From a virus: 64,000 nucleotides of DNA. Both the position numbers and the translations under genes were made by a program. A model generated the notes under the pieces. The model was given only the letters and a program-made list of their open reading frames with translations, was not told the DNA's origin and ran no database searches. Location of the stretch: positions 78,779-142,778 of IMG/VR virus record IMGVR_UViG_3300026445_000027. One strand, 5' to 3'. Positions 1,428-41,830 of this stretch are shown piece by piece. The number at the start of each line of letters is the position of its first letter. The stretch's first letter is position 1.

Positions 1428-1895
1428 CTAACGGGGTTTTACTAATCGTGGATCAAAGCCAGCTTTACGGAGATCTTCCTGTTGCTCTTTCGGTAACCCT
1501 TGTCGCTGTTCTTCTGCTTTACGACGGGCTTCTTCAGCCTTATCGCGTTTGTTGAGGCCTTTACTAACAGCCTCTAGAAACTCATCCACTACAGCAGACG
1601 GCATTTCCAGGTAGTCCTTAGGAGTCATTAACTCACCTAGCTTATGGTATCCGAAGTACTCACCTACCTGTTCCGTCGACCATGGGTGGAAGAAAGCGTT
1701 CTCAGCAGGGTTGTAGGCGATCGAGGAGTAAGGTGTACGTGTTTTAGGATCATAGCGCTCGAAGTTGATGTCTACCATCATTTTCTCATTGAGCAGCAAG
1801 GTCTCCGGTAGCATCTGTTTGACAGACTTGCCCAACAGGCTACGAGTGATACCTTCATGAACCGTATTAAACGTTACCTTACCCCCCGGTCCCAC
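1428..1895 (-). CDS. Probable tail assembly chaperone C-terminal (gpT-like) segment, likely reached by -1 frameshift
   Basis: Weak GTG start. The frame is open upstream to 2015 across a T7 run. Motif MTPKDYLEMPSAVVDEFL resembles gpT-type tails. Confidence 0.55.
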   Translation of the reverse strand: MGPGGKVTFNTVHEGITRSLLGKSVKQMLPETLLLNEKMMVDINFERYDPKTRTPYSSIAYNPAENAFFHPWSTEQVGEYFGYHKLGELMTPKDYLEMPSAVVDEFLEAVSKGLNKRDKAEEARRKAEEQRQGLPKEQQEDLRKAGFDPRLVKPR

Positions 1896-5366: not shown

Positions 5367-6654
5367 ATTAGAATTCCTAAAGATCTGGTTAGCTAACCAG
5401 GGCTATGCTGAGAAGGCTGCTGTACAGTCAGTGATCTCGATTCAGTTCGAAGACGAGGACTCTGCTGGTGCTTTCCGTAAAGTCCCTTGGGCTGTCTGGG
5501 TTGAAGGCGGTGTGTATAAATGCCACATTGATGGTTCGGATGTAACCATTGATGGTAAGGTAGATCGTCCGTTGTTTGTTAACGACGATTACATCGATCT
5601 GCCTGGCGACTTCCATCCGGTACTACGTGGAGCTAAGACCGACACTACCTTCGGTCTGTTGCTGTTCAACATCATCCTGTTCTGGGAAGTGTTCGGTACC
5701 AAGGTGCCTTACGTTAACGAGGAGTTTACTCCTAAGCTTATCCAAGGGTTTTTGTCTGACCTGATGGTAGACAACCCCAAGGAAGGTGAGCAGGTGCCTG
5801 AGGGTAAAGCCTCGGTAGATGACTGCATGAAGTTTACCCGCCACTGTAACTTCCTGGAAGGTCTGGGTACCTACTTCGTGAGGCCTGGTGGGATTGAGAT
5901 GCTCACCATCAGTCCTGCTATCCTCAAGCGTAAAGACGAGCTGATGGCTAAGCTGAAAGCCGACGGCAAAATGAACGACCCAGTAGCTGTAACTAAGGCT
6001 ATTGATGAGCTCGTCAAAATGGACCGTGAGGAGATCATGAACGGTCCTGGGGCTACGTTTATCATTAACGATGGCTTCATCAGTAACGCCCGTAAACGTA
6101 TGTTCATCGCCTTTGGTATTGAACCTAAAGGTGACGGTTGGGTGTTCCTCAACATGTCCCTGGATGAGGGCATGGATCCAGATGAGATCGTGGCGTATAT
6201 CAACACAGCTATTGCTGGTTCGTATAGCCGTTCGAAATCTACTGGTGAAGGCGGTGCACAGGTTAAAGAGGTACTGAAACTCGTAGGTCGCCGTAAGGTA
6301 GATCTGGCTGACTGCGGCACTACTGTTGGTGAGCCAATCCAGATGCATGAACTTACTGCTCAGAAATGGGCTGGTAGCTTCTACATTGTTAATGGTAAGA
6401 CCGAACAGTTAACCAAAGAGGTGGCACTGGCTAGCTTCGGCAAACGTCTGGTTATTCGTACCCCTAATGGTTGCCGTAACCCTGAGGGTAACTACTGCGC
6501 TACTTGCTGTGGTACTGGCTTGGGTAAACTGGCCACTCGTCTGTCTGCTGAGGTCGTACGTATCCCTACCAACATGATGCTGGGGCGCATGAAAGCTGCT
6601 CACGTGGCTGGTGGTAAGACTACTCGGCTAAACCTGGCTACTGCGATCAAATAA
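5359..6654 (+). CDS. Virion RNA polymerase beta'-like subunit, middle fragment (phiKZ gp80-like)
   Basis: Bridge-helix-like SRSKSTGEGG...DCGT, Zn motif CRNPEGNYCATCCG, trigger-loop-like MKAAH. Confidence 0.85.
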   Translation: MTKLEFLKIWLANQGYAEKAAVQSVISIQFEDEDSAGAFRKVPWAVWVEGGVYKCHIDGSDVTIDGKVDRPLFVNDDYIDLPGDFHPVLRGAKTDTTFGLLLFNIILFWEVFGTKVPYVNEEFTPKLIQGFLSDLMVDNPKEGEQVPEGKASVDDCMKFTRHCNFLEGLGTYFVRPGGIEMLTISPAILKRKDELMAKLKADGKMNDPVAVTKAIDELVKMDREEIMNGPGATFIINDGFISNARKRMFIAFGIEPKGDGWVFLNMSLDEGMDPDEIVAYINTAIAGSYSRSKSTGEGGAQVKEVLKLVGRRKVDLADCGTTVGEPIQMHELTAQKWAGSFYIVNGKTEQLTKEVALASFGKRLVIRTPNGCRNPEGNYCATCCGTGLGKLATRLSAEVVRIPTNMMLGRMKAAHVAGGKTTRLNLATAIK

Positions 6655-6711: not shown

Positions 6712-7314
6712 TTAACTACGCTGATTGAACAAAGCGTTCTGGAACGACAGCTTGCTCGGGTCAAACAATGCCTTGAGTTCTGCAACTCCAGGATCTTGGT
6801 CAAATATCAAATCAGCCAAACTGACTGGTCTGGTATCTGGGATGTCCTTAGGCATAACACAAAACGCGATACGGTCAGGCAAATGGAGTGCATTAAAACG
6901 GAACCCCTTTGCTATCTGTGGATCTTGGAATACTTCATCCAGCGAATGAATCTCACCAGGATCGTTAAACTCTTCAATGGAGATAATCGCGATACCTAGT
7001 TTGTCTGCGATCTGTTCGTGGGCGTCGGAGTTGAACCCGTACTCTTTCTCGTCGAGGAAGATCCCACATTCTTCATTGAGTTGCTTATTGATATCCAGCA
7101 GATAATCAATGGACAAATCATACTGACAGACGTCATCGGGTTGTTCGAGGTCACAATCATCCATGGTCTCGAACGTACCTATTTTGCCTACCCGCAAGAC
7201 TGACAGTATGGAATAGATCGCCTCCAACACCAGGAAGCCCATAAAGGACTCACTGGCATCGGAATAGAGCTCGTCCCTAGTCTCTGGATCCAGGCGTATT
7301 ATGAAGTTGTGCAT
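6712..7314 (-). CDS. Hypothetical acidic protein
   Basis: 200 aa; part of a tightly packed minus-strand run. Confidence 0.7.
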   Translation of the reverse strand: MHNFIIRLDPETRDELYSDASESFMGFLVLEAIYSILSVLRVGKIGTFETMDDCDLEQPDDVCQYDLSIDYLLDINKQLNEECGIFLDEKEYGFNSDAHEQIADKLGIAIISIEEFNDPGEIHSLDEVFQDPQIAKGFRFNALHLPDRIAFCVMPKDIPDTRPVSLADLIFDQDPGVAELKALFDPSKLSFQNALFNQRS

Positions 7315-33979: not shown

Positions 33980-34418
33980 TGATATCGTCCATACTTGGTG
34001 TGTCAGTTACCACATCCATGATATCTTCTTCTTCCCGCACTGGAGGAGTGATGTTCCACCCTAGTCGCTCTGCGGTAGCTTCCAGATCCATCACGATAAC
34101 GGCTGTAGTATATACCACGCCGATTACCGAGTAATCCACTTTAACCACCAATCGTGGATCCCAGCCATTACCACGAATCATGCGCTGGATCATTGCTACA
34201 TACGACGAGAACACTTTATCTGGTACGGACATACCATAAGTGTCAGCAAAGTCTTCGATATCTTCGGCGATTTTGTTTTTACGCTTACCGCTAGATTCGT
34301 TAATGTATTCCACTGCAGCCGTTACTAACGCTCTGGCAATCTCCAGTCTGACCATCAAGGTAGTGTCGGCTTCCAAGATGAAGTCATTGGCTAATGCCAT
34401 TATGTCGATCTTAACCAC
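33861..34418 (-). CDS. Hypothetical protein
   Basis: 185 aa; GAGG RBS; 119-nt overlap with the next gene. Confidence 0.65.
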   Translation of the reverse strand: MVKIDIMALANDFILEADTTLMVRLEIARALVTAAVEYINESSGKRKNKIAEDIEDFADTYGMSVPDKVFSSYVAMIQRMIRGNGWDPRLVVKVDYSVIGVVYTTAVIVMDLEATAERLGWNITPPVREEEDIMDVVTDTPSMDDINEFNKSDGARAQSIPPLSSNRRAEFVRKDQRRNIQNYRG

Positions 34419-34430
34419 AGGGTACCTCGG

Positions 34431-34727
34431 TTAATATTCCAGTGTTATTAATAGAAAAGCGTTGGCTTTACCATAGGCGCTAATATTGACGTAAGCATCA
34501 CGAGGTACACCCGCTATCTTTTCCAATATCCCTTCCCGTAGCCCCTCGAAGTCATGCCCATGCATGCGATGGTAAATACGTTGCTCGTTAAATTCAGTAA
34601 ACCCTTCATCCATCAAAACGGAAATAACGTCTGTAACGTCTATTTTGCGTTCTAAGAGCTTTTTGCCGTCGCCGATAGGACGGCCAAGGGTAAACCGTTC
34701 AAGGTTAATAGAGAAGCTTCTAGACAC
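34431..34727 (-). CDS. Hypothetical protein
   Basis: 98 aa; GAGG RBS. Confidence 0.65.
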   Translation of the reverse strand: MSRSFSINLERFTLGRPIGDGKKLLERKIDVTDVISVLMDEGFTEFNEQRIYHRMHGHDFEGLREGILEKIAGVPRDAYVNISAYGKANAFLLITLEY

Positions 34728-34795
34728 CTTTACGACCCCTCTCGTTAAACATAGTATCGCATATATATGGTCAACCAGTTAAAAACAACTATAAC

Positions 34796-34829
34796 CCTAA
34801 GGGTAGGAGCATTAGCTCCTACCCTTAGG
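34796..34829 (-). terminator. Hairpin downstream of phuZ
   Basis: CCTAAGGGTAGGAGC-atta-GCTCCTACCCTTAGG. Confidence 0.75.
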
Positions 34830-34841
34830 TTACATCATAGC

Positions 34842-35837
34842 TTACAGCAAGACGCCGTTGGAATCAGCACCGACGGACATGTCTTTCTGTTGTACGTAGA
34901 CGCCCTGGTTGGTGGACTTGACCTTGGTCAGTTTTTCCAGTTGTTGCTCCAGGTCGGCTACGGATTCACCGTGGTCCAGCAGCATGTGCAGCTGGGTGGT
35001 GTCGGCTGGGGTTTGGATGCCCTTGCCGAAGATGCCGGTGGAACGGATCACAGTGCCGGAGAAAGCAGCAGTGATGTTCTCGGACTTGTCGAACAGGCTG
35101 ACGGTAGCTACCGGGATTGGGCCCTTGTAGTTTTCCGGGTTGTCGTAGAAGCTGATGCGCGACAGTGCTGGTGGAACGCCGTAGTGCTTGGAGTAGTCCA
35201 GCACGTTGAGCAGGTCTTGGAAGTCTTGCTCTTCGTTGTCACCGTTGGCGAACAGCGAGAACAGCGAGATCTTCTGAACGACGTCGCGGTCGACTTGGCC
35301 GCGGGTCTTACCTGGCTCGTTGCGGAACTCCATGTAGTTGATCGGAGCGTTGAGCTGGTTCGGTTGGGTTTGAATCGCCATCGACTGCAGAGTCTTGATG
35401 GAGTTTTCCATTTCGACCTGGGAGGTGTGGTCGGTGATGATCGCCAGTACTGCCGAGTGGCCGTTCTGTTTCAGCCAGCGGATCACCAGGGTAGCCAGCA
35501 GGGCACCAGAACCACCAGCGCCGGAGCAGGCAACGATGTTGAACACGCCTGGGGTGTACTTGTTCATGGTGCGGTCAACGAACGGTACAGCCTCGGCGTA
35601 GTTGGTAGCTTTGACCTTACCGGAACCGTTGGCGAGCTTCTTCGGATCACCGCTCAGTGGGACGCGTTCCAGCGGGATGCCCAGTTCTTCTGGCAGGCGG
35701 TTGTTACCGGAGGCGTCGAGTGCCAGGTAAGTTGCCTTGGCCACCTTGTCCGAGTAGGTGCTGGCTTTCAACAGCTTAGCGATGTTGATACCGGCGCCGC
35801 CGCAGACGATGATGTTCAGCTCTGGTTTAGTCGACAT
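34842..35837 (-). CDS. phuZ: Phage tubulin PhuZ
   Basis: CGGAGINI, GSGK, tubulin signature SGAGGSG, QDFQDL; 331 aa. Confidence 0.93.
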   Translation of the reverse strand: MSTKPELNIIVCGGAGINIAKLLKASTYSDKVAKATYLALDASGNNRLPEELGIPLERVPLSGDPKKLANGSGKVKATNYAEAVPFVDRTMNKYTPGVFNIVACSGAGGSGALLATLVIRWLKQNGHSAVLAIITDHTSQVEMENSIKTLQSMAIQTQPNQLNAPINYMEFRNEPGKTRGQVDRDVVQKISLFSLFANGDNEEQDFQDLLNVLDYSKHYGVPPALSRISFYDNPENYKGPIPVATVSLFDKSENITAAFSGTVIRSTGIFGKGIQTPADTTQLHMLLDHGESVADLEQQLEKLTKVKSTNQGVYVQQKDMSVGADSNGVLL

Positions 35838-35912
35838 AAATTACTCTCTTTACCAAGTGGAAGTGTATTGCGAAATCATTTATGTAAAAGATCTGTAGAT
35901 CCATACACGTAG

Positions 35913-35930
35913 GTAATATAGGCTTGTAAA
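35913..35930 (-). promoter_or_regulatory. Phage early promoter of phuZ
   Basis: Minus strand TTTACAAGCCTATATTAC with an exact TATATTAC core. Confidence 0.75.
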
Positions 35931-36135
35931 TTTATTACCCTACATAAAAAGGTTATCCAGTATAAATGCAAAAAAGAAAAGCATTACCTACCAGTACCTA
36001 AACCACATGGGCAAGGACTGGTAGGCTAAGCTTAACTACACTGGGATGCTATCAACTAACTAGGTCGAACCCTACAACGACCAGGTATGTGATTGAGCAA
36101 TACAATATAAAGTGCAGTTACAAAAAATAAAGTAT

Positions 36136-36447
36136 AACCCCACCCAATACCCCTAGACCAGGCGACAGTGTCGGCTAGGATCAGGGCATTGAGCAGGGGG
36201 AGGTTTTCTTTGGTTGCCTCAACAGCACAACCCAACCAGCGAATAACTAGGCAGACGATTACTGGTTGTTGCCTTAGGACCTCCTAACCTTTGGCAGGGG
36301 CAGGGGCTACAGCATGGGTCGAAGATACAAAGGAAGAGTGACGTACCAATTGAGAGGCACACCGGCCAGCAAACCTGACAACGGGTACATCACTCTGACT
36401 AGGCAAGCGAGGGCAAGCTTAGTCTACACGGCCGCTAGGTCCATGTT
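36136..36447 (-). ncRNA. Putative structured RNA(s) at the 3' end of the tRNA operon
   Basis: No credible ORF; 12-bp helix 36335-36346/36385-36396, crossing helices, long G-U-containing hairpin 36136-36205 followed by a U-tract. Confidence 0.45.
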
Positions 36448-36524
36448 TGGAAGAGGTAGATGGATTCGAACCATCGCATGACAGGATCAAAACCTGTTGC
36501 CTTACCGGGCTTGGCTATACCTCT
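36448..36524 (-). tRNA. tRNA-Gln (anticodon TTG)
   Basis: AGAGGTA/TACCTCT acceptor, ACAGG-TTTTGAT-CCTGT anticodon arm, GTTCGAATC, encoded CCA. Confidence 0.93.
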
Positions 36525-36529
36525 GTAAC

Positions 36530-36624
36530 TGGGGTGGTCTACGGGCTTTTACCGTACGTCGTGAGTAACAGGCCGGCCTCCAGACCTGTAACGGCTTTCT
36601 CAAAGTGGACCTTGGGAGAACACC
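36530..36624 (-). ncRNA. tRNA-like RNA A (95 nt)
   Basis: GGTGTTC/GACCACC acceptor-like stem, TACGG-TAAAAGC-CCGTA T-arm, CCA end; no canonical D or anticodon loop. Confidence 0.6.
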
Positions 36625-36631
36625 TTTGATT

Positions 36632-36707
36632 TGGCTCCACGTCCTGGATTCGAACCAGGGACCAACAGATTAACAGTCTGCTGCTCTACCGACTGAGCTA
36701 ACGTGGA
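36632..36707 (-). tRNA. tRNA-Asn (anticodon GTT)
   Basis: TCCACGT/ACGTGGA acceptor, GCAGA-CTGTTAA-TCTGT anticodon arm, GTTCGAATC, GCCA end. Confidence 0.95.
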
Positions 36708-36715
36708 AGAAATAT

Positions 36716-36831
36716 TGACGGTCCATTCGGGCTTTTACCGCACTTACTCATGAGCTTGCGGCTCAAGGGGGCCCGACCGTCCGGGCGCCGAGTGCTTTCT
36801 TTACCTACCAGGGTTCCTTGATCAATGGTCC
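36716..36831 (-). ncRNA. tRNA-like RNA B (116 nt), paralog of RNA A
   Basis: GGACCA/TGGACC acceptor-like stem, CGG-TAAAAGC-CCG T-arm, CAAGG and AGAAAGC motifs shared with RNA A, GTCA end. Confidence 0.55.
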
Positions 36832-36847
36832 TTTGTAGGTTAATATG

Positions 36848-36981
36848 TTGTTCGACCTGGTAAGGGGGAAGGGAGGCTCGTTTTATCCCCCGACTTGGAC
36901 CCATGCACCGTATGGACTACTGGGCGGCTCCTTTTAGTGTAGCCCGGCTGTACCCTACCGTCTTTCCACCAGATCAAACAA
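36848..36981 (-). ncRNA. Putative ~134-nt ncRNA closed by a 14-bp stem
   Basis: TTGTTTGATCTGGT/ACCAGGTCGAACAA, with two G-U pairs that form only on the minus strand. Confidence 0.55.
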
Positions 36982-36994
36982 ACTCTTGAATAAA

Positions 36995-37285
36995 GTATCC
37001 GTTCGCCACACCCGCGCTATTCGCATTCCGCAAGCGCGTCATGTACTTACATTCCCGTTGCCACGGATCACAGCAAAGCGCTCAGCGCGCTAGCACGGGA
37101 AAGAGTCCCCCTAGGACTTCTTGTGTGGGCTGCTTGCGCAATGCAAAGCCGCCCTGCGAGCCAACCTGACCGTCGGCTAAATGCCAGCAACAAGGTACCG
37201 TGACGAACCTTGTTGCCGGACTAGGTGTGTGTTCCTCAGCGCCCTTCGCCGCCCACAGCGCACCACCTTTGCTGAGGGACACACA
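36995..37285 (-). ncRNA. Putative ~290-nt highly structured ncRNA
   Basis: 15-bp and 13-bp hairpins, several short helices, possible pseudoknots; no credible ORF. Confidence 0.5.
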
Positions 37286-37287
37286 TT

Positions 37288-37427
37288 TGGTAGAGAGTAC
37301 ACGATTCGAACGTGTGGGCCCATAAGTGTCGTTGGCCGACACCCTGAGCACATCCGGTTTCATGTAAGGCCGCCCTAGGGTACGCCCACAATCCTCCAGA
37401 CTCCTTAAACCACTCGGACAACTCTCT
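37288..37427 (-). ncRNA. Expanded tRNA-Ser-derived RNA (140 nt)
   Basis: Perfect acceptor, Ser-type D arm TGTCCGAGTGGTTTAAGGA, T arm ACACG-TTCGAAT-CGTGT, ACCA end; 38-nt anticodon loop and 37-nt variable arm. Confidence 0.8.
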
Positions 37428-37444
37428 GTTAACTTTGTATAACA

Positions 37445-37603
37445 TAGGAAATCGGGACGGATCCCAGGGTAGAGCCCTGGTCTTACGCCGTAAGTATACG
37501 ACGCATTCTGGATCGCCCTCCGTCTTGAGGCTTTTCTTCCCTAAGTCTAGCCAACCCTGACGGCCGTTAGGCTAGAGAGTTAACCGCGACCCGGGTTTAT
37601 CCA
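37445..37603 (-). ncRNA. Putative structured spacer RNA
   Basis: Hairpins TCTAGCC/GGCTAGA, CCAGGG/CCCTGG, GACGGA/TCCGTC; non-coding. Confidence 0.35.
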
Positions 37604-37607
37604 AATA

Positions 37608-37693
37608 TGGTGCGAGAGACGGGCATCGAACCCGTATGGCCAGAAGCCGACAGATTTTAAGTCTGTTGTGTATACCAATTCCACCACACTCGC
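37608..37693 (-). tRNA. tRNA-Leu (anticodon TAA)
   Basis: GCGAGTG acceptor, GGAATTGGTATAC D loop, ACAGA-CTTAAAA-TCTGT anticodon arm, long variable arm, ACCA. Confidence 0.92.
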
Positions 37694-37801
37694 AGAACAC
37701 ACCGTTACATATCATAACCATGTGTAGTAAAAAGATAAGAGGAACTGCTCCAGATTGCGACATCCTTCACAATCCCTCTGTCACCTAGACCTCGGTAATA
37801 G

Positions 37802-38066
37802 TGTTAACCCTTTTACCGCCGTAAAGGCCCGCCTCATCAAACTCTCTGCTCACAACCATGCTGCCGGCCAGATCGAAATCCCAGGGCGGTCAGCACAGAA
37901 GAAGCCCAGTAGGAAAGTTTGGGTGACTTAGTGGGTTTGACGTTCCACTCATAGGTTCTGCTCAGAAAAGCTTGTCATCGCGATTCGTTGCATCATACAA
38001 CCACCGGCTCCACCTTAAGGTTCCGGCTGATCTCCTCAATGGGAGAATTCGGTTTAGGCGTTAACA
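37802..38066 (-). ncRNA. Possible ~265-nt ncRNA or leader at the start of the RNA island
   Basis: Non-coding, several hairpins, TGTTAAC/GTTAACA ends (palindromic, so weak evidence). Confidence 0.3.
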
Positions 38067-38106
38067 ATCACACCTGTTGTATATAATGGATTATTGCAGT
38101 AACAAA

Positions 38107-39297
38107 TTAACCAATCGGACTACCAGTGGCAGACTGCATGCCGTTTACTGGGGCCTCACCAGCTCTTATGATCAAATCACCTTTGGACTCAACGATGTAT
38201 TTATTGGCTTCTTTGAAAGTGTTGCCCAGGTAGTAGAGACCGGTGCCGTTATAGCCGATGCCGTAGTACTGCATTTCACACTGATCGCTAGACTCAGCAG
38301 AGATCATTGCTGTAAGGTGTTCTTGTGTGATAGCTGAACTAACGTTTTCAACATAGACGGGGTTGGCGTGCTCACTGAACTCAGCAATGAAATTATCATC
38401 TACCAAAACAACCAACGTCGACAGGCCGTTGATAAGCCACTTGCGATGCGACAGGATGATTACTTTACCTGGGTAGCGATTACCAGTTTTGGTGATCTCT
38501 TCACGAATAAGGTTTTTGGTAGTTTTGCTGAAATTGCCGAAAACTGTGTTATAGTACTTGAGCTGATCCGGGTCATCCAGTACAAAAGGGCGTTTGACGC
38601 TAGGGATATCTTCTTCTGGTCCTGGGTCCCTTGCAGGCTTAGCATTAGCCTTAACATAGTTAGCTTCCAACATCGCCAGTTTGCTTTCTGGTATCAGCCC
38701 ACCTTCGCGAAGCTCTTTGATCATTTCCTTTGTGGCGTAAACGTTGTATTGCTGAATACGTTTGGCGGTTAACGAGTAAGCGTCGAAGAAGCTACCGTCC
38801 AGGTACGCACCAACGTTACCATGGAAATTAGCCAGGATGGTACCGGAGTCGTACTCTTCTTCTGACTCAGCCACGCCACCTGGGGCCAGGCCTGCTTTAG
38901 CCAATGCTTCGCGCAGGTTAGGGTTAGCACTGAACATAATCTCACGTGCCATTGCCGCGATGCGAACTGGATCAGCGCCGTTCAGCAATGCGGGCAGATC
39001 AAAATCTACCGCACCTGGGTCGTCAGTGAGGGACTCTTTGTAGAGACCACCCATACCAGGGTACTCGAGGTCTTTCTCCGTGATCTTGGAGATAGTGTCC
39101 CCGGATGCGTTCATGATGTAAACGTTGCCAGTGATCGGATAAGACCGATTCTTACCTGGCAGTGCATGTTGGATTACCAGCCCGTGGTTTCCATTTGGTG
39201 GGGTACCTAAGTTGACTTTGATGTCAACCGGTTCTTCTACAACCAGCATGCGGAAACTCTTGTTGTCGCGGTCCATCATTTTGATAATGAGGTTCAT
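38107..39297 (-). CDS. Hypothetical protein, paralog family member 4
   Basis: 396 aa; N-terminal domain ends in ITGNVYIMNASGDTISKI. Confidence 0.75.
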   Translation of the reverse strand: MNLIIKMMDRDNKSFRMLVVEEPVDIKVNLGTPPNGNHGLVIQHALPGKNRSYPITGNVYIMNASGDTISKITEKDLEYPGMGGLYKESLTDDPGAVDFDLPALLNGADPVRIAAMAREIMFSANPNLREALAKAGLAPGGVAESEEEYDSGTILANFHGNVGAYLDGSFFDAYSLTAKRIQQYNVYATKEMIKELREGGLIPESKLAMLEANYVKANAKPARDPGPEEDIPSVKRPFVLDDPDQLKYYNTVFGNFSKTTKNLIREEITKTGNRYPGKVIILSHRKWLINGLSTLVVLVDDNFIAEFSEHANPVYVENVSSAITQEHLTAMISAESSDQCEMQYYGIGYNGTGLYYLGNTFKEANKYIVESKGDLIIRAGEAPVNGMQSATGSPIG

Positions 39298-39357
39298 GTA
39301 AACTACTCGTATTAGTTAGTGGTTTGTCTTACTGGTATTGCGTACGTGCTATGTTGC

Positions 39358-39385
39358 CTAAGGTCAGAGCCGCCCCTGACCTTAG
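39358..39385. terminator. Intergenic hairpin
   Basis: CTAAGGTCAG-agccgccc-CTGACCTTAG. Confidence 0.55.
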
Positions 39386-39406
39386 TATTGTTTTGCTCGG
39401 TGTAAA

Positions 39407-40249
39407 TTAACTAAAGGTAACCGGTCGGATATCAAAAACTTCATTATCCAAATTGACGGTAAAGGCTTGTTTGTTAAGAAGGCTGTCGACTCTCCAGCCT
39501 TTGTCTGGAATATACTCAAGCCCATGGGACTCTTTTTCTTTGGCCGAAAGTGTATCGACTGTACGGCACCCTAGTTCAGTAACTACGATATGCGGCTGAG
39601 ATGCACACTCCATGATACCTAACGTTTTGTCAAAATGAGGATTTACATACAAAATCCATGGTCCATTAGGTGGCAAATCTATCATCCACTGGAACATTTG
39701 GGTAAATGGATCAACATGATCTGCGCTAATCAATTCGTTCAACTGATCAAGGCTGTTGCTAGGGAGGAATTGCAATTTACCAAGACCCAAGTAAAGAGTC
39801 GGTGAAGCTGCACGTAAATCTTTAGCACTATTCCAAACGGTAGCTGGATCACTCCCCTGGACACTCCCACCTGGATTCAATGGAGGGAACTGCTTAGGTA
39901 TCTCACTACGCTTATTCAACTCTTCCCAGTCAATGGGGCGGTCGCCACTCATTGCTTCCCGGATAGGTTGTAATACTGCTTCGGTCTGTTCTTCAATACG
40001 CACCGGAGCCATAAGCTTTTCATAGCTTACTTCACTTAACACCAACCCGTCAGGATTCATGATGGTGACGTCACCAGTTACCGGAATGACTTCAGAACGG
40101 AAGTCACCAAAACCCTCGACTACCACCAATGGGGTATTAGACTTGGTCGCAGCAAATACAGTCACACGACCAGCATGTAGCACAGGGATCAAATGGAACC
40201 CGACTTTATCCGAGTGCATTACCTTGATAATAGTTACTGGTTTAATCAT
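39407..40249 (-). CDS. Hypothetical protein, paralog family member 3
   Basis: 280 aa; VTGDVTIMNPDGLVLSEV. Confidence 0.75.
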   Translation of the reverse strand: MIKPVTIIKVMHSDKVGFHLIPVLHAGRVTVFAATKSNTPLVVVEGFGDFRSEVIPVTGDVTIMNPDGLVLSEVSYEKLMAPVRIEEQTEAVLQPIREAMSGDRPIDWEELNKRSEIPKQFPPLNPGGSVQGSDPATVWNSAKDLRAASPTLYLGLGKLQFLPSNSLDQLNELISADHVDPFTQMFQWMIDLPPNGPWILYVNPHFDKTLGIMECASQPHIVVTELGCRTVDTLSAKEKESHGLEYIPDKGWRVDSLLNKQAFTVNLDNEVFDIRPVTFS

Positions 40250-40863
40250 TACGCGGGCTCCCCTATCAATTTCTTAGCTTCTTCTTCAGACAAGTTAAAT
40301 GTAAAACCGAAATTAGTTGCTACTGGTTCGCGAGTCTTTCTGTTCACCCCGATAAATGAGTAAGCTAACTCCGGAGTGGATGGGTCGATAAAGATTTCGT
40401 GGTCATGGCACGATGCGTAGAAAGCCTGATCGGATCCTAGGAGCACTATTGGACTTTCTTCACCCATGTGCGGCTTGGGGATAAATACCGAAATAGGGTT
40501 TCCGCAGTAGAGGGTGGCGCGGGTTCTTACTTTCCAGATGCCATTTGTAGAGACAGTCAGTCGTTTTTCCAACAGCTCCATCCAGAACTCTTTGCTTCCT
40601 GGTGCGGTGGGAGTGGGAGGGTACACCAGATCGGAAAGTTTCACTAACTGGATCAAGGCACCTGTGTGAGACTTGATCTCTACGTCACCACGCAGTTGGT
40701 AAACGGCGGTATTTTCCTCCAACACCCCGTCTATTTCAACAACCCCTTTCTGGATAGTCAAGGTAGCATGACCTCGGCCAAACTTCATGACCTCTTGACT
40801 ACCCACTTGGAGGACAGTACCTACTGAACCATAGCTAGTAAACAACGTTACGATAAGACTCAT
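40249..40863 (-). CDS. Hypothetical protein, paralog family member 2
   Basis: 204 aa; LRGDVEIKSHTGALIQLV. Confidence 0.75.
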   Translation of the reverse strand: MSLIVTLFTSYGSVGTVLQVGSQEVMKFGRGHATLTIQKGVVEIDGVLEENTAVYQLRGDVEIKSHTGALIQLVKLSDLVYPPTPTAPGSKEFWMELLEKRLTVSTNGIWKVRTRATLYCGNPISVFIPKPHMGEESPIVLLGSDQAFYASCHDHEIFIDPSTPELAYSFIGVNRKTREPVATNFGFTFNLSEEEAKKLIGEPA

Positions 40864-41114
40864 GACGCGCCCTCTACACTATAGGCCGTGACAGTTTGGA
40901 TTACTTCACCGTTTGCATTACAGATCTCCACTTCCCCATCAAAGCCGTAGGCGGTAATGCTGTTACTAGATCCATTAACTGAAGGGATACGTACATGTGG
41001 ATCGGAATTGGTGTACCGACCGAATTCAATACGCTCGCCAACTTTAACCGTCAGTACGTTTTTCACAACGCCTTTGCTGTTCTTAACGATTACCAACATT
41101 GCCAACTGACTCAT
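40860..41114 (-). CDS. Hypothetical protein, paralog family member 1 (stand-alone domain)
   Basis: Start moved to ATG 41114 (GGAG RBS); FDGEVEICNANGEVIQTV. Confidence 0.7.
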   Translation of the reverse strand: MSQLAMLVIVKNSKGVVKNVLTVKVGERIEFGRYTNSDPHVRIPSVNGSSNSITAYGFDGEVEICNANGEVIQTVTAYSVEGAS

Positions 41115-41146
41115 ACTTACTCCAATTATTAAAATGCGTGTATAAA

Positions 41147-41173
41147 CCCTACCTAGCTTATAGCTAGGTAGGG
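41147..41173. terminator. Intergenic hairpin
   Basis: CCCTACCTAGCT-tat-AGCTAGGTAGGG. Confidence 0.65.
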
Positions 41174-41179
41174 GTACCA

Positions 41180-41830
41180 TTAAACGGCTTCTACTACGAT
41201 CGGGTCTTCGACTTCTGGCTTCGGATGGGTGGAAGCTTCACCAGGAGTAGTCTCCGGCTTAACCGCTTCATCCTTGGCGTCCTTCGGATCTTTGATCACC
41301 AGGTGGGCAGGCCGTACCGATTTCACTTCTGGTACTGGCGGGAACACGAATACGTCCACGTCACCACCGGACATCACATCCAGCTTACAGGCAGTTTTAA
41401 CCGCCTTAGCCGCATTCTGCCCCACGCACATAGCAGCCAGTGCAAAACGGCTACCGCTACCGCTGGAGTATGGAACGTTTACCGGCAGCAGGAACTGCTC
41501 TTCACCACGCTTCTCTTTGTTGGCGTAGATGCTCCAGGCCAGTACCTCGTGGCGCTCAGTAATGAGGATCGCCTCGAAGTCCAGTTCCTCGTCGTGCGTT
41601 ACCCGTGTACGGTAGTCGATACCCTTACGCAGGTACTCCTTGATGTACTCGATGGCATGTGCCTGGCCACACACGCCGAATGCGATGATGCGTACGCCAG
41701 CTGCTTCCCAGTACTCGGTAGCTGCGTCTGGCTTGTGGATCTTCTTGAAGTTACCTGGCATGGCCATCCAGCCTTTAGTAGCCTGACCATCACTTGCCAT
41801 CATTCCGTCGCTAACTGCGATAGTAGTCAT
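41180..41830 (-). CDS. Proteasome-beta/HslV-like Ntn threonine peptidase
   Basis: N-terminal (M)TTIA, ASDGQAT, FKKI, SGSG and DVMSGG motifs. Confidence 0.8.
   Translation of the reverse strand: MTTIAVSDGMMASDGQATKGWMAMPGNFKKIHKPDAATEYWEAAGVRIIAFGVCGQAHAIEYIKEYLRKGIDYRTRVTHDEELDFEAILITERHEVLAWSIYANKEKRGEEQFLLPVNVPYSSGSGSRFALAAMCVGQNAAKAVKTACKLDVMSGGDVDVFVFPPVPEVKSVRPAHLVIKDPKDAKDEAVKPETTPGEASTHPKPEVEDPIVVEAV

Follow-up and report, generated by a model that had tools for sequence, protein, structure and literature searches.

A conserved, probably non-decoding RNA of tRNA-Ser type with two paired expansions in PhuZ-encoding jumbo phages

The subject of this report is a gene for an expanded RNA of tRNA-Ser type. 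It lies on the minus strand, 37427->37288, of a stretch of virus DNA of 64,000 nucleotides (nt), positions 78,779 to 142,778 of the IMG/VR record IMGVR_UViG_3300026445_000027; this whole stretch is called the window. The RNA has 140 nt including an encoded CCA end, and in the place where a tRNA has its anticodon loop it has a hairpin. Eight distinct versions of the gene, with RNAs of 120-150 nt, are present in independent soil and virus assemblies of PhuZ-encoding jumbo phages. Very probably they specify a real and selected tRNA-like RNA which does not decode. As to its role we lean, with reservations, towards a conserved gene for a non-decoding class II tRNA-Ser derivative which would act by being bound, either as a decoy or as a scaffold. 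If so, nucleus-forming jumbo phages keep, under selection, tRNA genes which were rebuilt without decoding ability and which tRNA finders and Rfam miss.

Anatomy and conservation of the expanded gene

Read from its 5' end, the RNA begins with an acceptor stem of 7 base pairs (bp), followed by UG and by a D stem of 3 bp whose Ser-type loop has 11 nt; after G26 comes an anticodon stem of 5 bp. Next are 38 nt, the 3' strand of the anticodon stem, 37 nt of variable region and a T stem of 5 bp with the loop UUCGAAU, and the RNA ends with the 3' strand of the acceptor stem, A73 and CCA. This is exactly the parse that the original prediction, made from the letters of the window, had given. The parts of the gene and the motif ahead of it are listed below; bit scores refer to R1, a covariance model built from the expanded-tRNA family.

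37288-37427, minus strand: whole gene, 140 nt including CCA; 133.7 bits with R1, homologues present
37421-37427, minus strand: acceptor stem, 5' strand, RNA positions 1-7; perfect pairing with 37292-37298, 7/7 pairs in 8/8 members
37402-37418, minus strand: D arm, positions 10-26, a 3-bp stem and an 11-nt loop with G18 and G19; invariant in 8/8 members bar one loop base
37396-37400, minus strand: anticodon stem, 5' strand, positions 28-32; 5 bp with 37353-37357
37393-37395, minus strand: internal loop, 5' side, N32-G-G (AGG here, UGG in five members); GG invariant in 8/8
37362-37392, minus strand: 31-nt hairpin standing where the anticodon loop would be (family range 31-36 nt); hairpin fold in 8/8
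37358-37361, minus strand: internal loop, 3' side, G-A-A-N38 (GAAA here, GAAG in two members); GAA invariant in 8/8
37353-37357, minus strand: anticodon stem, 3' strand, positions 71-75; pairs with 37396-37400
37316-37352, minus strand: variable region consisting of UGU, a 32-nt hairpin (12 bp) and CC; hairpin z-score -3.3 against shuffles
37299-37315, minus strand: T arm, positions 113-129, a 5-bp stem and UUCGAAU; loop invariant, 4/5 stem pairs covary
37288-37298, minus strand: acceptor 3' strand (37292-37298), A73 (37291) and CCA (37288-37290); U72 in 8/8
37437-37450, minus strand: conserved leader motif 10 nt upstream of the gene; the same motif stands upstream of a tRNA-Tyr in the syntenic slot of the relative L005

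The 38 nt between the strands of the anticodon stem had been described as an anticodon loop. The count is correct, but the segment is not open: in the window a 31-nt hairpin, with AGG before it and GAAA after it, lengthens the anticodon stem to a rod of 14-16 bp. Across the family 38-43 nt separate the two strands, and the entire anticodon arm is a single rod of 14-20 bp with a small purine internal loop beside the canonical stem. The hairpin closes at or near its own ends. The junction loop, N32-G-G on one side and G-A-A-N38 on the other, is present in every member; N32 and N38 could pair (U-A or U.G) in three of four lineages. Within lineages the helices of the rod are kept by G-C/G.U switches and a few double changes. 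By inspection only, the GG/GAA loop fits neither a kink-turn nor a loop E or bulged-G motif. The apical loop of the rod was considered as a displaced anticodon loop and rejected, the apical loops being 3-8 nt long and not conserved.

The second expansion resides in the variable arm, which at 11-14 bp usually has twice the normal length. Its hairpin has 10-14 bp in seven members and 3 bp in L085, with lengths of 27-40 nt throughout the family except for the 10 nt of L085. Because of this one short hairpin, the rod in the anticodon arm is a universal feature of the family and the long variable arm an optional one. The earlier statement that both expansions are paired thus holds, as the hairpins fold in the members; the long variable arm, 37 nt in the window, is not universal. 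The nucleotides of the tertiary pairs are almost invariant, i.e., U8, A14, G15-C48, G18 and G19 with the T loop, and G26.U44. A mobile palindromic element as the source of the expansions was rejected, since neither expansion recurs in the 143-kb record.

The source is a 142.8-kb IMG/VR virus record, about 60% complete, of which the window forms a part; contigs from sequencing runs give a full genome size of about 243 kb. Because the record encodes the tubulin PhuZ and the divergent family B polymerase of phiKZ-like phages, its gene content assigns the phage to the chimallivirus-like jumbo phages. Pattern scans of virus and metagenome collections, together with a locus search anchored on PhuZ, retrieved the family. 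By locus its members are the window (also L002); L073; L020/L047; L003/L004/L046; L044; L070; L085/L095/L134; and L158. The phages of the family are all uncultured. Further pattern scans for members with other 5' halves gave nothing new, and in the literature no description of this RNA was found.

The gene sequence of the window is also contained in L002 and in contigs of 20 sequencing runs. Since the same sequence recurs in independent assemblies the gene is not an assembly artefact, which settles a doubt raised at the outset. L073 differs from the window by two single-nucleotide polymorphisms; both are located inside the expansions, and pairing is kept. Every genome has one copy. All members are situated in a tRNA island, and wherever phuZ is on the retrieved DNA the island is just upstream of it. 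Compared with the PhuZ of the window, the identities are 100% (L073), 82% (L020), 73% (L003) and 58% (L085 and L158). A complete 236-kb relative, L005/G001, with a PhuZ identity of 63%, is without the gene and has a tRNA-Tyr in the same slot. As the members span PhuZ identities of 58-100% while this relative lacks the gene, the gene is old in the clade and was lost or replaced once.

The 74 positions of the core are 82-100% identical to the window. The expansions measure 31-36 nt and 10-40 nt and are unalignable between lineages. Their lengths differ between homologues by non-multiples of three, for which reason the overlapping small open reading frames (ORFs) were rejected as protein-coding. 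In the family alignment, A2, no sequence breaks any of the 25 pairs that make up the acceptor, D, anticodon and T stems and the variable-arm base. Of these 25, nine have changed on both sides: four of five at the base of the variable arm, four of five in the T stem, and one pair of the anticodon stem, which covaries from U-A to G-C. None of 500 shuffles reached the observed values, and in slid controls pairing dropped to 31-52%. A U.G wobble in the anticodon stem is invariant; together with the G.U pairs it fixes the RNA strand as the minus strand. Full pairing, compensatory changes and pairing-neutral polymorphisms together leave no room for chance, errors of assembly, a hidden ORF or simple decay. 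The first impression that the gene does not look like random decay is borne out by these figures, and the related phages carry equally expanded tRNAs with compensatory changes and not a normal tRNA-Ser.

At default settings ARAGORN and Rfam do not call the window gene; Rfam has no match even at E<=10. When introns are allowed and the threshold is lowered, ARAGORN produces a weak, non-conserved His-GUG call with a 43-nt 'intron' in the window. This call and a nested Gly-CCC call in L003 were rejected: homologues disagree and the stems are mismatched. After both expansions were trimmed in silico, ARAGORN at its default called all eight members tRNA.

Descent from tRNA-Ser and the explanations weighed

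The first 19 nt of the RNA are identical in more than 60 ordinary phage tRNA-Ser genes. Because of this identity the RNA derives from a class II tRNA-Ser, in agreement with the origin first proposed for it. In GenBank phages matches are limited to the 5' half of the RNA, and they are annotated there as tRNA-Ser, and R1 scores the tRNA-Ser of T4 with 45 bits. Common to the expanded RNA and ordinary phage tRNA-Ser (RF00005) are the 5' 19-mer, the D arm, the T loop, acceptor pairs 2-7 and the position of the variable arm. The ordinary genes with the same 19-mer have 7-nt loops of the type CU-NGA-AA, a G1-C72 pair and a variable region of 16-22 nt. The expanded genes, in contrast, have no 7-nt anticodon loop, G at position 33 and a variable region of up to 45 nt, and in every member the 1-72 pair is A1-U72 or G1.U72. 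Measured against a canonical tRNA-Ser, acceptor, D and T stems and loops, tertiary nucleotides and a long variable arm at the Ser position are all in place; a 7-nt loop with U33, an anticodon and R37, scores above the detector thresholds and the identity of the acceptor end are not. The discriminator A, to which attention had been drawn, is correct for the window yet no family trait: position 73 is A in five of the eight members, including the window, and G in three. Ordinary phage tRNA-Ser mostly have G73, a few have U73. The CCA end is encoded only in the window lineage (window, L073, L020).

For the function of the RNA in the phage we propose a binding role. The RNA would be co-transcribed with the tRNAs next to it in the island upstream of phuZ; host RNase P and 3' trimming would release it, with CCA added where it is not encoded. 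A stable L-shaped RNA would then accumulate and be bound by proteins which read the tRNA shape, the acceptor end or the Ser-type arm; the ribosome presumably cannot use an RNA which lacks an anticodon loop. Preferably, the RNA would substitute harmlessly for host tRNA-Ser, or for uncharged tRNA in general, and would absorb a host factor directed at tRNA. Such a factor might be a defence toxin which modifies acceptor ends or cuts anticodons. The absent anticodon loop would confer immunity to anticodon nucleases as well as invisibility to translation, and the altered 1-72/73 end could keep the RNA uncharged and open to acceptor-end toxins. A decoy role specifically is a possibility which we put forward tentatively. 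The original prediction offered a non-decoding tRNA mimic or, alternatively, the substrate of an unknown processing step. With a conserved family and no clean excision that restores U33 in the window phage, the mimic is the best reading, and the processing substrate is disfavoured.

Several observations weigh against a bound, non-decoding RNA. The case for a decoy is drawn entirely from analogy, and because the variable hairpin of L085 has just 10 nt, a decoy acting via a long variable arm would not be a general rule. The rod of the window lineage is thermodynamically unremarkable (z -0.5 to -1.2), the z-score of the whole window molecule is only -1.1, and the conserved GG/GAA loop was matched to no named motif. 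Expression is inferred only from conservation, since the RNA-labelled libraries evidently contain phage DNA. Sixteen runs labelled metatranscriptomic contain the island; in the four examined it is on one contig each, 72-243 kb long, with the whole stretch at uniform depth and without joints, which resembles DNA carry-over. Finally, exact removal of the hairpin leaves a 7-nt loop, WGGGAAR, in which positions 34-36 read GGA, a serine anticodon, and position 37 is A in 8/8 members, and in L085, L158 and L003 the insert still ends, on its 3' side, in U33-NGA-A-A.

Because this 7-nt remainder reads a serine anticodon, another explanation stays alive, namely that the hairpin is a short structured intron. 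It would be cut at the internal loop by a host endonuclease or an unrecognised one of the phage and the halves religated, resulting in a decoding tRNA-Ser with the loop WGGGAAR (anticodon GGA), or U-NGA-AA in some lineages. A fast-evolving insert between conserved junction nucleotides is intron-like, and the window record, as far as its roughly 60% completeness goes, has no other tRNA-Ser. We enumerated all combinations by which 7 nt taken from the two insert ends could be retained. No register yields U33 together with R37 in more than three of the eight members. The sole register common to all members gives G33 (8/8) and not the near-universal U33; in other registers the window lineage gives A33, and L044 and L070 give C33 (5/8 members). 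The earlier remark that no clean excision restores U33 in the window phage agrees with this enumeration. Instead of a bulge-helix-bulge the junction has a symmetric internal loop, and an intron leaves the lengthened variable arm and the changed 1-72 pair unexplained. In four clade genomes, G000-G003, two of them 100% complete, RtcB, Rnl2-type and Rnl1-type ligases and splicing endonuclease (PF01974, PF01139, PF09414, PF09511) are absent, the search for PF09511 (Rnl1) being without a positive control; the class II aminoacyl-tRNA synthetase core and SerRS genes are absent from the same four. A group I intron was rejected, the insert having 31-36 nt compared with the approximately 200 nt or more that are needed, and there is no match to RF00028 or Rfam at E<=10. 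Likewise an archaeal or eukaryal bulge-helix-bulge intron was dismissed by inspection: a symmetric loop with 2-5 nt on each side stands between the helices, not two 3-nt bulges 4 bp apart. On this evidence we hold a spliced, decoding tRNA-Ser to be quite unlikely. Even less is to be expected of its most specific form, a third kind of tRNA intron, in which the 31-36-nt insert is cut at the GG/GAA loop and religated outside the group I and endonuclease-ligase pathways; such splicing would produce a functional tRNA-Ser whose loop has an unorthodox G33. If the intron were real, it would constitute a new RNA splicing route in bacteria or phages.

A different division of labour is conceivable, in which the tRNA body is a chassis providing processing and stability, and the rods or apical loops are a payload which, in place of titrating a host tRNA-binding factor, binds a phage protein, forming a ribonucleoprotein, or another RNA. 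The insertion site in the anticodon arm is that of synthetic tRNA scaffolds, and the surroundings of the gene contain further conserved structured RNAs which are released between tRNAs. Further, the apical sequences vary between lineages as if they followed a partner, and in the window lineage they are palindromic and contain CUAG. Against this, the payload sequences are unconserved between lineages and mostly double-stranded, with loops of 3-8 nt; what is conserved is the tRNA core with the junction loop, and no gene is consistently adjacent. We consider this explanation, the main rival of the preferred one, unlikely. That the gene is a functionless tRNA-Ser pseudogene, decaying after being broken by insertions, would agree with its inability to decode as written and with its rejection by the detectors. 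A decaying gene would hardly, however, retain a core with 82-100% identity where PhuZ is only 58-82% identical, keep all stems 100% paired through compensatory changes, collect both polymorphisms between window and L073 in the expansions with pairing intact, and persist, one copy per genome, at the same island in all lineages but that of L005. A pseudogene is most improbable.

The tRNA island and other RNAs

The expanded tRNA gene is located in a minus-strand tRNA cluster, between tRNA-Leu(UAA) and tRNA-Asn/tRNA-Gln; the island measures 2.1 kb. In the phage of L020 a canonical tRNA-Ser(GCU) is found 300 nt downstream of the expanded gene (L020 2590-2677), both in one island. The leader motif ahead of the gene was considered as a recurrent promoter; it occurs a single time in the window, below chance expectation, and a promoter role is unsupported. 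The genes upstream of the island (window 38107-41830, minus strand) have no Pfam matches. As for cultured PhuZ relatives, neither RisingSun nor FishSpeaker has tRNA genes annotated upstream of phuZ; in FishSpeaker an HslV-family peptidase is directly upstream of phuZ, with no tRNA island between.

Other structured RNAs populate the island. A conserved RNA motif of about 105 nt is contained in the spacer downstream of the expanded gene (window 36865-36966, minus strand), with copies at L184 381-521, L185 381-511 and L006 3148-3289. It is common to the cultured jumbo phages Psa21, D6 and Erwinia pEa_SNUABM_9, where it lies inside tRNA clusters on the tRNA strand and is unannotated; in pEa_SNUABM_9 it partly overlaps an annotated hypothetical ORF. 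An alignment of this motif, A3, gives seven covarying pairs, and Rfam has no match. A conserved pseudoknot-like module, in which the helices UUCCCGU/ACGGGAA and AUCCGU/ACGGAU cross, is shared by the window (about 37000-37110, minus strand) and L177 (about 2680-2800). It is downstream of the expanded gene in the window and upstream of it in the complete genome G003. The spacer of L073 is about 280 nt shorter than that of the window. The tRNA island is built of shuffled RNA modules.

Beside phuZ each genome has two odd tRNAs, in L177 at 1501-1589 and 1599-1683 (minus strand) and in L005 at 5398-5482 and 5493-5567. They score only 40-49 bits with RF00005 and have irregular anticodon regions; one shares CGAAUGG across two genomes. 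In the L085/L095 copies of G003 they escape ARAGORN, which in L005 labels them Ile(aau) and Gly(acc).

The metagenome scan also brought up unrelated class II tRNA-like genes with large inserts (L072, L008, L013/L038, L017, L039, L066). L072 has three tandem Leu(UAG)-like genes, at 5855-5968, 6080-6192 and 6782-6894, in which about 50 nt are inserted after position 37. Among the other finds are a Ser-like gene whose anticodon stem has 10 bp, and a Ser-like body that combines a CGC anticodon with a variable arm of 47 nt.

In soil libraries labelled metatranscriptomic (runs X9, X11, X15 and X16; window 34000-40000) the phage is represented by contigs of 72-243 kb at 80-200x. This means either that these RNA libraries are rich in DNA or that they are labelled wrongly. 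In that soil sample series the phage is very abundant.

Comparison with known systems

Three known classes of RNA were considered and set aside. YrlA is a bacterial Y RNA with a tRNA-like domain; it is non-decoding and occurs also in phages. Its Ro-binding helix consists of the two ends of the RNA, with the tRNA-like part in the interior, whereas the ends of the expanded tRNA-Ser form a normal acceptor stem with CCA, and no Rfam match to a Y RNA was found. ARAGORN -m finds no tmRNA, and pair 3-70 is A-U and not G3.U70. Known ribozymes gave no Rfam match at E<=10.

In the engineered tRNA scaffold a foreign hairpin replaces the anticodon loop, and the product is a stable and correctly processed RNA. 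The likeness consists in an intact acceptor/D/T core and a foreign helix on the anticodon stem. The difference is that the expanded tRNA-Ser is a conserved, evolving product of nature, with a further expansion in its variable arm. Should the decoy role hold true, it would be a natural version of the engineered scaffold.

Phage tRNAs which evade or neutralise tRNA-targeting host defences are likewise phage-borne, tRNA-shaped RNAs with an altered anticodon region. To our knowledge the evasive phage tRNAs described still decode; the expanded tRNA-Ser has no anticodon. If the expanded RNA is a decoy, it would represent a new RNA-based counter-defence against tRNA-directed bacterial immunity. A precedent for a toxin which recognises the variable arm of tRNA-Ser is MenT3, which selects tRNA-Ser via how long the variable arm is and how it is oriented (PMC11541572). 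Because MenT3 reads the arm in this way, a Ser-type variable arm can by analogy serve as a handle for a toxin. MenT3 is a member of the DUF1814 family, to which AbiEii belongs.

By architecture the closest known analogue is the species 1 RNA of T4 (rnaC), a stable RNA of the T4 tRNA cluster whose function is still unassigned (PMC9697503). Both are encoded in a phage tRNA cluster on the tRNA strand, they are almost equal in length (139 and 140 nt), and both are without an anticodon. In the fold of rnaC, a weak acceptor-like helix closes a canonical T arm (GGUUCGAAUCC type), a rod of about 27 bp occupies the site of the anticodon arm, and a hairpin of 10 bp that of the variable arm. Its D arm is lost and its acceptor is distorted, whereas the expanded tRNA-Ser keeps the full Ser-type core together with the GG/GAA loop. 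Against T4, R1 matches tRNA-Ser and not rnaC at E<=10. Because there is neither sequence nor covariance-model homology, this is a likeness and not a membership. Nonetheless, for the puzzle of the T4 species 1 RNA the expanded gene offers a tractable relative with a clean tRNA-Ser pedigree.
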